Below are positions 46,795-50,721 of a stretch of DNA of 64,000 bases, one piece after another. How positions within the stretch are numbered: position 1 is the first letter of the stretch; the number at the start of each line of letters is the position of its first letter. The position numbers and the translations under genes were made by a program. The notes beneath the pieces were generated by a model. It saw only the letters and a list, made by a program, of their open reading frames with translations. It was not told the DNA's origin and ran no database searches. Origin of the DNA: a virus; IMG/VR virus record IMGVR_UViG_3300023174_000056, positions 104,145 to 168,144 of that record; one strand, 5' to 3'.

Positions 46795-47349
46795 CTAAAA
46801 ATTTAAATTATTATTGGTATATTTAGTGACAAAATCGTTCATTATAATGCTACCAGCAACGGCAGCATTTAAAGAGCGTACAGAGCCATACTGCTGAATA
46901 AACACAAATCTATCACAAATTTCTATCGCTTCTTGTGTAAGTCCGACGCCTTCTTCGCCAAGAAGAAAAAGGACAGGCTTAGTATATTCAATCCTATCCA
47001 AACGGATAGCACCAGCAATAGTATTTTCAACACCAACAATTTCGTATTTTTCCTTCAACTCTAAAAGTTGTTCGTGTTTTTTTAGATGTATTACATCCGT
47101 ATAATGGTGTGTGCCAACTGTGCCTCTACGGTCATAGTGTTTATTGCCAATGTAATAAACTTCTTTCGCATTAAAACCATTTGCTGATCTTATCACAGAT
47201 GATAAATTAAAATCACCAAGAAGATTCTCCATCGCAACTGCGTAAGGAAAGGCTTTAGACTGGAGATCTTTTTTAATTAATTCTGTTGTCCACTTAGTCA
47301 AACGATCATACTTGTACTTGTCTGAAATGTTACGGTTGTCTGTGTCCAT
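46795..47349 (-). CDS. SpoU/TrmH family RNA 2'-O-methyltransferase
   Basis: 'FNLSSVIRSA', 'LGEEGVGL', 'SLNAAVAGSI' SPOUT motifs. Confidence 0.9.
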   Translation of the reverse strand: MDTDNRNISDKYKYDRLTKWTTELIKKDLQSKAFPYAVAMENLLGDFNLSSVIRSANGFNAKEVYYIGNKHYDRRGTVGTHHYTDVIHLKKHEQLLELKEKYEIVGVENTIAGAIRLDRIEYTKPVLFLLGEEGVGLTQEAIEICDRFVFIQQYGSVRSLNAAVAGSIIMNDFVTKYTNNNLNF

Positions 47350-48191: not shown

Positions 48192-48746
48192 ATGAAAACT
48201 ATAACACAACCATGCCAGAATTGTAAAGAACTTTTTGAAGCACAATTGCGTGAAGTAAATAGAGGCAATGCAAAATATTGTTCAAAAAAATGTAGTGCCG
48301 AAGGTGTAAAAAATAAACTTTTAGAACGAAACGCAAAAATAAATATTCCAAATACAGAATGTTCTTACTGCAAAAAAATATTTTATAAAAATAATTCTCA
48401 AAAGCAAAATTCTAAAAAAAACTTAAATTTTTGTTGTAGGGAGCACAAAGATCTTGCACAAAGAATAGAATTTGGTTTAAAAGATTTACAGCCATTACAT
48501 TATGGATCTGGCGATTCGCATTACAGAGAGATCGCATTCCGTAGCAAAGAACGTAAATGTGAACGTTGTGAATACAATAAACACCCAGAAGTCCTAGAAG
48601 TTCATCATAAAGACAGAAATAGAGAAAATAATACTATTGAAAATTTATTAGTTCTTTGTCCAACTTGCCACATGGAAGAACATTTTTTAAATAAAGATGG
48701 TAAGTGGAAAACAAAAACGGCAACCCCCGAAGAGATTACCGTCTAA
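48192..48746 (+). CDS. HNH homing endonuclease, inverted, between two tRNAs
   Basis: AAGGAG RBS; repeated Cys motifs; 'LEVHHKDRNRENN..ENL.VLCPTCH..EH'. Confidence 0.85.
   Translation: MKTITQPCQNCKELFEAQLREVNRGNAKYCSKKCSAEGVKNKLLERNAKINIPNTECSYCKKIFYKNNSQKQNSKKNLNFCCREHKDLAQRIEFGLKDLQPLHYGSGDSHYREIAFRSKERKCERCEYNKHPEVLEVHHKDRNRENNTIENLLVLCPTCHMEEHFLNKDGKWKTKTATPEEITV
48707..48742 (-). terminator. rho-independent terminator after tRNA-Gly
   Basis: ACGGTAATCTC-TTCG-GGGGTTGCCGT followed by TTTTGTTTT. Confidence 0.75.
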
Positions 48747-48749
48747 GTT

Positions 48750-48823
48750 TGGAGCAGCTAGTCGGATTCGAACCGACGAAACGAACTTGGAAGGATCGTG
48801 TGTTACCACTACACCATAGCTGC
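48750..48823 (-). tRNA. tRNA-Gly(UCC)
   Basis: GCAGCTA/TAGCTGC acceptor, U73, CCA; anticodon loop CTTCCAA; GTTCGAATC T loop. Confidence 0.95.
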
Positions 48824-49074: not shown

Positions 49075-49686
49075 CTATTCAATAATTTTGTCTACAAGAC
49101 CATACTTGAGACAAGTTTTAGCATCAAAATATATATCACGTTTCAAGATATCTTTTAAGGTGTTTTTTGGAATTTTTGTATATTGACCATAAATTTCATA
49201 AATTTTATCCATAAAAACATTGCAATTTTGCATATCATCTTTCATGTCTTCAAATTTACCCCACATACCACCTGATAATTGGTGAATTAGCATAAAAGAA
49301 TTTTTTGTGATACTTCTCTTTGGAGCCACAACACTTATAATAGTTCCAGCGCTGGCAGCACTGCCTTCAACGATAGAATGCACTGGGGCGTTGCTATTAC
49401 GAATTACATCAACAGCAGCAAAACAATCAAGTAGAGAACCGCCTGGACTATTGATGTAAAGTTTAATGTCTGGCGGTGTGGGCCATTCAAAATGATTTTG
49501 AACAAAAATCAATTCTTTGCTTACACTACGCAATTGTTTATTAAGGTTTAAAATTGATTTCTTAGTAACAGAAGAGTAAAAATAGATTGAATTATCTACT
49601 GTTTCAATTTCATTTAAATCTTCATCATCTTCGTCTGCGGACGGTTTTGTGGCTAAATAAAAAGCATTTTTTGGTAATTTAGTCAT
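49075..49686 (-). CDS. clpP: ClpP-like serine protease
   Basis: 'YINSPGGS', 'AASAG' (Ser), 'MLIHQ' (His), 'RDIYF' (Asp), 'YGLVD'. Confidence 0.88.
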   Translation of the reverse strand: MTKLPKNAFYLATKPSADEDDEDLNEIETVDNSIYFYSSVTKKSILNLNKQLRSVSKELIFVQNHFEWPTPPDIKLYINSPGGSLLDCFAAVDVIRNSNAPVHSIVEGSAASAGTIISVVAPKRSITKNSFMLIHQLSGGMWGKFEDMKDDMQNCNVFMDKIYEIYGQYTKIPKNTLKDILKRDIYFDAKTCLKYGLVDKIIE

Positions 49687-49700
49687 GGCAAGGCTCCAAT

Positions 49701-49988
49701 CTATGCCTTCATCTTACCCTTCTTATTTTTGCTTGTCAAGAGCTTTTCTTCAATTTCCTCAAGAGCAGCTTTTAATGATGGATCTACACGGCTTTTTACA
49801 ACATACTGTTGACCACCTACACCTGATCGCTTAATTTTAACTTGATAAGTACCAGTCTTGTCTTGCGCTTTTACAGACTTCCGAAACGTATCCGCTTCTT
49901 CAAACGAAGCAAAATAACGTTCATTTTTCCAAGGCTCACCTTGAACTTGCTTTGTTGTCTCTTCCATTTTCCTACCCTCCTTCGTCAT
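49701..49988 (-). CDS. hypothetical protein
   Basis: ORF with GGAGGG RBS before the internal MEETTK start. Confidence 0.65.
   Translation of the reverse strand: MTKEGRKMEETTKQVQGEPWKNERYFASFEEADTFRKSVKAQDKTGTYQVKIKRSGVGGQQYVVKSRVDPSLKAALEEIEEKLLTSKNKKGKMKA
49711..49739 (-). promoter_or_regulatory. sigma70-like promoter for clpP, inside upstream gene end
   Basis: TTGACA, 17 nt, TAAGAT. Confidence 0.6.
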
Positions 49989-50036: not shown

Positions 50037-50374
50037 GAACAAAATAACAGGCGTGTTATTACACTAAAGCGGAATCTCATTGCATCGCAGAATTCACCTT
50101 TTTATCGGTTACTCCACGTCTTCTGGATCTCCACGCCGATACGTTTCTCCTATTCCCTAACCACCCCGACCTATGATAGATTGCGCCTTACCTAATACGA
50201 GGATCTTATGGAGATCGCTCAAATATTACACTTAGTTATTTAAGGGTTTCGTATAATATTATTCGGGCTTTTAGCATAGACGCCTTTTCACAAGATTTCT
50301 ATCTGCACTAGTGGATTTTGCCGCACTCTTTAAAAGATGGCTACCTTTAAGCCAACTTCCCGATTATTTTGTTC
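50037..50374 (-). ncRNA. structured ncRNA containing a split 23S rRNA H43-H44 (L11-binding, GTPase-associated centre) mimic with a 260-nt insert
   Basis: 11-bp closing helix GAACAAAATAA/TTATTTTGTTC. 5' half TCGGGAAGTTGGCTTAAAGGTAGCCATCTTTTAAAGAGT (50363-50325). 3' half GTGTAATAACACGCCTG (50064-50048). Dedicated promoter; no ORF in the track. Confidence 0.8.
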
Positions 50375-50383
50375 GTAGATACA

Positions 50384-50426
50384 AGTATGCCACAGAGACT
50401 CGGTGTTGTCAAGTCTTCTGTGGCAT
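50384..50426 (-). promoter_or_regulatory. promoter of the ncRNA embedded in an inverted repeat
   Basis: TTGACA(50412-50407), 17 nt, CATACT(50389-50384) with TGn. Inverted repeat ATGCCACAGA/TCTGTGGCAT. Predicted start falls at the closing helix. Confidence 0.7.
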
Positions 50427-50431
50427 TTAGT

Positions 50432-50721
50432 TGGTGGAGGATTTGGGTATCGAACCCAAGTCTTACAGTCTTTTGTACAAAGTCATTCACAGGATTAGTA
50501 GAGTCGTCTACACGTATTACATTTTATTACAGTCTATTACAATTTGCAACTTTCTGTTTCTAGGCAGTTGCCGCCCAAGAATTACGCTGCTAGAGCGTAG
50601 GATTCAAACTCAACGTCTTCGTTGGCTTTTATTGTTTTGTAACATTTATTAGAGTCTGTTGTGTTACGCAGACTTCCCGCACTTTATATTTCTCTACCGT
50701 AATCGAATCCAGTTATCCCCC
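50432..50721 (-). ncRNA. ssrA: tmRNA, 290 nt, tag ANEDVEFESYALAA* (50626-50582)
   Basis: 5' GGGGGATAACTGGATTCGA; 3' GACTTGGGTTCGATACCCAAATCCTCCACCA; G3:U acceptor pair; resume codon GCC after ATAAAA; tag ends YALAA. Confidence 0.95.

Follow-up and report, generated by a model that had tools for sequence, protein, structure and literature searches.

An uncultured 168-kb T4-like freshwater phage carries, on the minus strand at 50037-50374 of the window (the whole stretch of 64,000 nucleotides that was analysed), a 338-nt element that rebuilds the GTPase-associated centre (GAC) of 23S rRNA around a structured insert of 260 nt. The element belongs to a large phage family that shares this architecture, that sits in arrays of RNA genes and whose secondary and tertiary fold is under purifying selection. 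About half of our confidence goes to the reading that it is a stable noncoding RNA gene of this family that would act in trans as an uL11-binding imitation of the ribosomal stalk base.

The GAC copy in the window

The predicted RNA is closed by an 11-bp helix standing in place of H42, in which the 5' strand (50364-50374, on the minus strand as is the whole element) is a perfect complement of the 3' strand (50037-50047); this helix covaries in relatives. Enclosed by it are a 5' half at 50325-50363, equivalent to E. coli 1052-1090, the insert at 50065-50324, which follows U1090, and a 3' half at 50048-50064, equivalent to E. coli 1091-1107. The 5' half covers the top of H42, H43 with its 1067 loop, the 1082-1086 pair and G1087-U1090, while the 3' half consists of the H44 hairpin GUGUAAUAAC, A1101, C1102 and the 3' strand of the H42 top. 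Read across the junctions, the element runs ...AAAGAGU / 260 nt ...CCGCUUUA / GUGUAAUAACAC.

A preliminary description, made from the sequence alone, had matched the two halves to 23S rRNA, and alignment to the actual E. coli rrlH sequence bore this out: both halves align without gaps, with 30/39 positions identical in the 5' half and 11/17 in the 3' half (41/56 summed). That description had also called the differences largely compensatory. The set it named (1054/1105, 1058/1080, 1090/1101, 1092/1099 and 1072) accounts for 9 of the 15 differences, all compensatory or covarying, and a tenth, U1052, retains a wobble with G1107; the other five, at 1068, 1070, 1089, 1103 and 1106, are unpaired changes that it had not listed. 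A1067, A1095, U1060 and A1088 are all present in the window element, as had been claimed. The base triple 1072/(1092-1099) is in the UUA state (U1072 with U1092-A1099), and A1101 pairs Watson-Crick with U1090. The minimum free energy fold of the whole element returns the closing helix, H43 and the H44 hairpin, with an overall z-score of only -1.9.

The Rfam LSU model (RF02541) matches the 5' half at 25.2 bits (E 7.8e-6, model positions 1086-1152), below its gathering score of 50, and Rfam 15 gave no family on the element beyond this partial match, the outcome expected when the search was first proposed. The 168-kb genome holds no rRNA operon or further rRNA, and a contiguous LSU match of ~2.9 kb is absent from it.

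Selection on the fold across a phage RNA family

Relatives were gathered by blastn of cultured phages with the H43 copy of the window, followed by a second query that extended the phage list. The same 40-nt H43 copy lies in gaps between annotated genes of phages that are not related to one another, namely Aeromonas phage 4_4572, Pseudomonas phages Astolliot and Milchi, Ralstonia phage RSP15 and Acinetobacter phage ME3, and the second query added Pseudomonas phages pf16 and UNO-G1W1, Cronobacter phage GAP32, Pectobacterium phage CBB, Serratia phage BF, several Erwinia phages, Xanthomonas phages XacN1 and XbC2, and a Vibrio phage. The GenBank records of these cultured carriers leave the GAC-mimic RNA gene unannotated. 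Scanning IMG/VR with a 5'-half pattern gave 96 contigs, all of which resume with an H44-like loop after 45-340 nt and none of which continues as true 23S rRNA. A family-specific 3'-half pattern was found in at least 120 IMG/VR contigs, and the pooled set comprises about 150 distinct elements, a minimum since the 3'-pattern matches are those listed. When 596 Gb of prokaryotic genomes were searched with the 3' pattern, only 36 matches appeared, ~20 of them real and nearly all of these on contigs of metagenome-assembled genomes from many phyla, without firm host assignment; given how few they are, the RNA is essentially virus-borne. Many short phage-named records in the collection are plain rRNA, and the record of Paenibacillus phage Pd_22F (MZ092003.1 82474-85512, L005) holds a genuine 23S rRNA stretch that is probably host contamination or a chimeric assembly.

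All members follow a common order: a closing helix of free sequence, 1054-1090, the insert, a YUUU(G/A) linker, G-Y-G-U-A-R-N-A-R-C, A1101 and C1102. Every listed member has an insert, which ranges from 29 to 425 nt and always lies exactly after G1089-U1090. The window element shares the closing helix, U1060/A1088, the triple, the insert site, the linker and the setting among RNA genes on the same strand. The preliminary description had proposed a covariance model of the two halves with a variable insert and a search of phage metagenomes; relatives were indeed found in phage contigs, and a model (R1) built from 39 family members, the window excluded, has its sole match in the 64-kb window at 50370-50041, full length over model positions 1-141, with 72.2 bits and an E-value of 1.4e-15. 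Genuine 23S rRNA scores 54-60 bits with R1, and the family is set apart from it by the insert and the closing helix.

The strictest covariation set consists of 102 distinct sequences among the 3'-half matches listed, whose 5' halves lie outside the search pattern. In these sequences, pair 1058-1080 is A-U in 33, U-A in 30 and G-C in 28; pair 1082-1086 is U-A in 57, C-G in 21 and A-U in 13; pair 1064-1074 is C-G in 92 and A-U in 10; and pair 1054-1105 is G-C in 62 and A-U in 39. For each of the four, the observed pairing was matched in 0 of 2000 shuffles. The outer pairs 1051-1053/1106-1108 are formed in 81-90% of the members among the matches listed, using all four pair types. Tertiary contacts behave in the same way within these 102 sequences: U1060-A1088 is kept in 96, and the triple 1072/(1092-1099), which bridges the insert to connect both halves, takes the CCG form in 77 and the UUA form in 22, 3 sequences being exceptions, its state having switched separately within at least three insert classes. 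By phage, GAP32 has the E. coli-type U-A at 1058-1080, and other Proteobacteria phages have A-U or G-C. A MAFFT alignment of 39 short members, evaluated with the named structure, had 95.7% of cells paired compared to 76% when shuffled and 40-55% when slid; doubly changed cells numbered 193 versus 57 in this alignment, and in 14 of 22 pairs both partners change.

The strong similarity of the 5' half to rRNA sequence could also be explained by capture of a piece of host 23S rRNA, as a pseudogene or chimera, maybe interrupted by a group I intron or mobile insert; the 5' junction base is U and the insert ends in G in most relatives, which would suit an intron. The element has no flanking rRNA and is closed by a helix of its own, however, and none of the 96 contigs from the first pattern continues as rRNA. 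Elsewhere in E. coli 23S rRNA the inserts have no counterpart, and the ~150 distinct versions covary. With compensatory changes in every helix of the relatives and a co-switching triple, the element is an rRNA mimic shaped by selection, as the preliminary description had concluded, and does not represent a captured fragment; both capture and intron are practically excluded. A group I intron was searched for separately with RF00028, which had no match at E-values up to 10; the insert in the window ends in A, and inserts of 29 nt exist. The possibility that the insert copies other rRNA was also discarded, as blastn-short of all elements against E. coli 23S rRNA gave only four scattered chance matches of 12-16 nt outside the GAC; a likeness of the class-B module to 23S ~1125-1145, noticed by eye, found no support in the blast comparison.

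Not all of the rRNA sequence is held equally. Among the 3'-half matches listed, position 1067 is A in 74% and G in 22%, position 1070 is A in 77% and G in 23%, and 1061, 1068 and 1097 vary too, while the fold-forming positions are fixed. The H44 loop has G1093, U1094 and A1098 fixed and A at 1095 in 92%. In rRNA, binding of L11 requires the tertiary fold of this domain, positions 1061, A1067 and A1069 contribute no hydrogen bonds to the tertiary structure, and A1070 and A1095 never vary yet take no part in tertiary contacts (PMC6239185). Since its fold-forming positions are fixed, the family keeps what is needed for the fold, and hence for the C-terminal domain of uL11; judged from the aligned members, some of what rRNA conserves on other grounds is relaxed. 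The idea that the face contacting translation factors and thiostrepton is copied strictly does not fit with the variation at 1067 and 1070 among these matches. Titration of uL10-bL12, suggested initially, fares no better: past 1054/1105 no sequence is conserved in the closing helix across the family, and for this reason the family does not copy the uL10-bL12 site on H42.

RNA-gene arrays and the structured insert

Among the matches listed, a tRNA gene lies within 50 nt of 62 of the 150 elements and within 1 kb of 100, and in all 100 of the latter the nearest tRNA is on the strand of the element. The gaps between element and tRNA, at 4-20 nt, are similar to those between tRNAs; in pf16, for example, the element occupies the gap between tRNA-Asn and tRNA-Pro. 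This same-strand proximity and tRNA-like spacing suggest that the family RNAs are probably cut out of tRNA transcripts. A conserved neighbouring protein gene was sought across the family loci and none was found, the best cluster being an HNH endonuclease at 13 of 151 loci, and this absence suggests a partner supplied by the host. Pseudomonas phage Astolliot carries two tandem copies (L002:1156-1483 and L002:1492-1674) ahead of tRNA-Met; in the first of these H43 has diverged, and its score with the family model is only 27 bits.

Besides a single copy of the GAC-mimic RNA, the 168-kb genome encodes ten tRNAs and one tmRNA. In the window, the phage tmRNA gene lies 57 nt upstream of the element (50432-50721, minus strand; RF00023 at 73.9 bits, also found by ARAGORN, which reads the tag peptide as ANEDVEFESYALAA), and a tRNA-Gly(UCC) gene lies 1.2 kb downstream (48750-48823, minus strand; Rfam and ARAGORN). 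A gene for an HNH homing endonuclease, related to those near the RNA at the 13 loci, stands between the RNA genes on the opposite strand (48192-48746, plus). Family-wide, tmRNA genes occur within the fetched locus at 9 of the 150 loci among the matches listed.

The clade of the window, in its turn, has a conserved promoter-like site. The promoter noted in the preliminary description was found again as a promoter-like site at 50384-50412 on the minus strand (TTGACA, 17 nt, (TG)CATACT), and it predicts a start ~3 nt ahead of the closing helix. An inverted repeat, GCCACAGAAGAC ... GUCUCUGUGGC (50389-50424, minus strand, with arms at 50424-50413 and 50399-50389), has the -35-like TTGACA in its loop, and both promoter-like hexamers and the repeat are kept in the syntenic relatives L020, L111, L159 and L167. 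The repeat could be a processing or termination hairpin instead of, or besides, a promoter.

Directly downstream of the element are a conserved 95-aa ORF without family matches (49701-49988, minus strand) and then a gene for a ClpP-like protease (49075-49686, minus strand). The element is directly upstream of this same gene pair both in the window and in the syntenic relatives, as would be expected of a cis-acting leader that controls the ORF and the protease through uL11 in the manner of ribosomal-protein operon leaders. Four observations make this explanation very improbable and, in practice, exclude cis-regulation: tRNA genes flank most family elements on one or both sides; in L050 an element with the same insert class comes directly after tRNA-Leu, a few bases apart; no downstream gene is conserved; and a second promoter-like site separates the RNA from the ORF. 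The ClpP-like gene and the 95-aa ORF lie far from the head gene cluster and are syntenic in L020, L111, L159, L167 and L173. Farther downstream, a SpoU/TrmH-type 2'-O-methyltransferase of 184 aa is encoded at 46795-47349 on the minus strand (Pfam 1.8e-24) and is syntenic in close relatives only (L159 and L167). It was considered as an A1067 thiostrepton-resistance methylase and rejected, its nearest characterised relatives being tRNA Gm18 TrmH enzymes.

Inserts homologous to that of the window were found only in L020, L050, L111, L159 and L167, of which L020 is a near-twin and L050 more distant. Patterns derived from the insert returned only L020 and L050, plus a chance match (L103); of ten stretches from a single metagenome scan, one (L111) is a real relative and seven are chance matches; and L159 and L167 were reached through synteny. 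The insert begins with a basal stem in which GCGG (50324-50321) pairs with CCGC (50072-50069), the latter followed by the linker UUUA (50068-50065). Within this insert class the basal stem covaries (GCGG/CCGC versus GAGA/UCUC), as do a long-range CCACN/NGUGG stem and a small hairpin, ACC-GAUAAAAA-GGU, and two RNAalifold runs on the six-sequence class differ over parts of the insert fold.

The basal stem (helix 7) is supported family-wide in the 39-member alignment, and minimal members have inserts of 29 nt that form only a 6-bp hairpin, which together indicate that the branch at H44 is obligatory and its size free. All-vs-all blastn sorted the inserts into classes of 20 and 7 and otherwise mostly singletons. 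The largest insert class carries a module, RNC-ACC-CCG[tetraloop]YGG-UAAG-GNY with AAGUR before it, that occurs in 25 of 151 elements (L001:1700-1760, for example) and shows covariation in both its small hairpin and the 3-bp stem that flanks it.

Inserts that are long, structured and of many unrelated classes, and the retention in Astolliot of two tandem copies with different insert classes, would be in keeping with a scaffold for a phage protein or a ribosome-docking RNA, in which the GAC fold is reused as a stable structural part and the function resides in the variable insert. We consider this quite unlikely, since the GAC copy, tertiary contacts included, is the only part common to all members, the minimal inserts hold so little, and the search for a conserved neighbouring protein across loci came up empty.

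A sister class points to what the family imitates. Five members with long inserts (~310 nt) have, at the same relative place, a hairpin of the form [A/G]GUA-C-NNRA-G-GAA on a 7-bp stem that resembles the sarcin-ricin loop (L025:3776-3812(-), L046:11941-11977(+), L137:7826-7862(-), L178:8411-8447(+) and L251:6706-6742(+)). Under a strict criterion the hairpin occurs in 4 of 151 elements versus 0.63 expected from shuffles, and compared to E. coli H95 all pairs hold and both partners change in 7 of 7 stem pairs. No enrichment was seen for a generic AGUA-hairpin-GAA arrangement (5 elements versus 2.3 in shuffles). The RNAs of this sister class thus reproduce the site on the ribosome where GTPases dock in both its halves, and the hairpin indicates the factor-docking site as the thing imitated by the family. 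A sarcin-ricin-like hairpin was also sought in the window and its insert class and was absent.

Candidate function and relation to known RNAs

We infer that the element is expressed as a discrete RNA, that this RNA binds uL11 and that its binding has a downstream effect. The RNA would be made from its own promoter-like site, or cut from a tmRNA/tRNA transcript, and its two ends would zip into the closing helix and rebuild the GAC fold (H42 top, H43 and H44), with the 260-nt structured domain leaving H44 at its 5' strand by way of a three-way junction. Away from the ribosome, it would most likely bind host uL11, whose C-terminal domain recognises exactly the GAC fold. The resulting RNA-uL11 particle would imitate the L11 stalk base and compete with ribosomes for a RelA-type stringent factor or for translational GTPases, and this competition would shift host translation control in favour of the phage. 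The 168-kb phage genome was searched for uL11, RelA/SpoT and MazG, and none is encoded.

Some features count against uL11 as the target, namely the obligatory H44 insert, the YUUU(G/A) linker and the A1101 change, absent from rRNA, as well as an insert class in the window without a recognisable sarcin-ricin mimic. Ribosomes already present hold uL11 tightly, and a uL11 sponge would consequently need high copy number or exchange of uL11. The great diversity of the inserts suggests that specificity may lie outside the copied centre. For the large phages of many host phyla that carry the family, we lean neither towards nor away from a broader form of the proposal, in which the RNA together with host uL11 would be a free copy of the factor-docking site that intercepts host proteins. 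The sensors or attackers intercepted would be RelA-type alarmone synthetases, translational GTPases or ribosome-directed toxins, and the sarcin-ricin hairpin would complete the copy in some classes.

A different possibility is that, in abortive infection or in warfare between bacteria, the RNA is a decoy or sink for an enzyme or toxin directed at the GAC, or at the GAC and the sarcin-ricin loop. It would take the attack upon itself, in a way comparable to the phage tRNAs that stand in for host tRNAs after cleavage. Phage tRNA arrays are a site of counter-measures to RNA-directed defences, and the RNA is placed in such arrays; moreover, the H44 loop is held at G1093, U1094, A1098 and largely at A1095, and one class adds a hairpin like the sarcin-ricin loop, the classic ribotoxin target. 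To our knowledge no anti-phage system targets the GAC, though, and a stoichiometric RNA would be set against a catalytic enzyme and host ribosomes numbering in the tens of thousands. There is variation at 1096-1097 and 1067, and overall we regard a decoy role as unlikely, if worth weighing. There is a precedent for a toxin aimed at the GAC domain in Tre23, which ADP-ribosylates H44 around 1095-1098 and blocks EF-G (PMC8661411).

The closest known structure to the phage RNA is the bacterial GAC itself (E. coli 1051-1108, the 58-60-nt uL11- and thiostrepton-binding domain), with which it shares the secondary structure, U1060-A1088, the 1082-1086 pair, the G1093...A1098 loop frame and the 1072/(1092-1099) triple, for which both allow the same two states. 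Unlike the GAC, the phage RNA is free-standing, has its own helix of arbitrary sequence, an obligatory insert after U1090, the YUUU(G/A) linker and a Watson-Crick A1101-U1090 pair, is relaxed at 1067 and 1070, and is encoded among tRNA genes and not within an rRNA operon. Ribosomal-protein leaders, such as the L10 leader (RF00557) and the L1-binding site of the L11 operon, are likewise extra-ribosomal copies of rRNA protein sites. Such leaders regulate in cis, as parts of mRNAs lying ahead of ribosomal-protein genes, and mimic rRNA only in part, whereas the phage RNA is a separate gene with the whole tertiary domain and no ribosomal-protein gene nearby. The Rfam leader families, the L10 leader and others, do not match the window, where the 95-aa ORF and ClpP-like gene lie downstream.

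Phage tRNA operons are known to encode other structured, non-decoding RNAs. The species 1 and 2 RNAs of T4 and RNA1-3 of T5 are of this kind, have no known function and are presumably released by tRNA-processing enzymes; these small RNAs are also encoded in tRNA arrays but are tRNA-shaped, while the GAC-mimic RNA is rRNA-shaped. ROOL and GOLLD are likewise long structured phage noncoding RNAs of unknown function, often beside tRNA genes, but they do not mimic rRNA, and by Rfam comparison the phage GAC mimic matches neither in sequence or structure. A phage RNA that imitates a host RNA to capture a protein partner is also found in phage phiTE, whose pseudo-ToxI decoy RNA imitates an antitoxin RNA repeat, as shown experimentally (PMC3475682). 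In the present case it is a ribosomal domain that is copied, and a decoy role would be deduced from the sequences.

The preliminary description had not recognised a named family, and a search of Rfam 15 and of the full-text literature for the GAC-mimic family likewise found no description. If the proposed role is true, takeover or counter-defence through mimicry of an rRNA domain would be a mechanism without prior description. The GAC is among the most conserved and best-studied sites of the ribosome, and a widespread, selected copy of it implies a phage-host interaction at this site that has not been described before. An rRNA mimic would join the tRNAs and tmRNA that large phages are already known to bring with them. 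Because the RNA occurs in the cultured phages pf16, GAP32, CBB, BF, 4_4572 and ME3, whose hosts are easy to handle in the laboratory, the hypothesis can be tested directly. The family also provides ~150 natural variants of a classic model system for RNA folding, including independent switches of the base triple. Two members (L189:4630-4799 and L209:1309-1479) have an extra 20-nt hairpin inserted in H43 directly after A1077.
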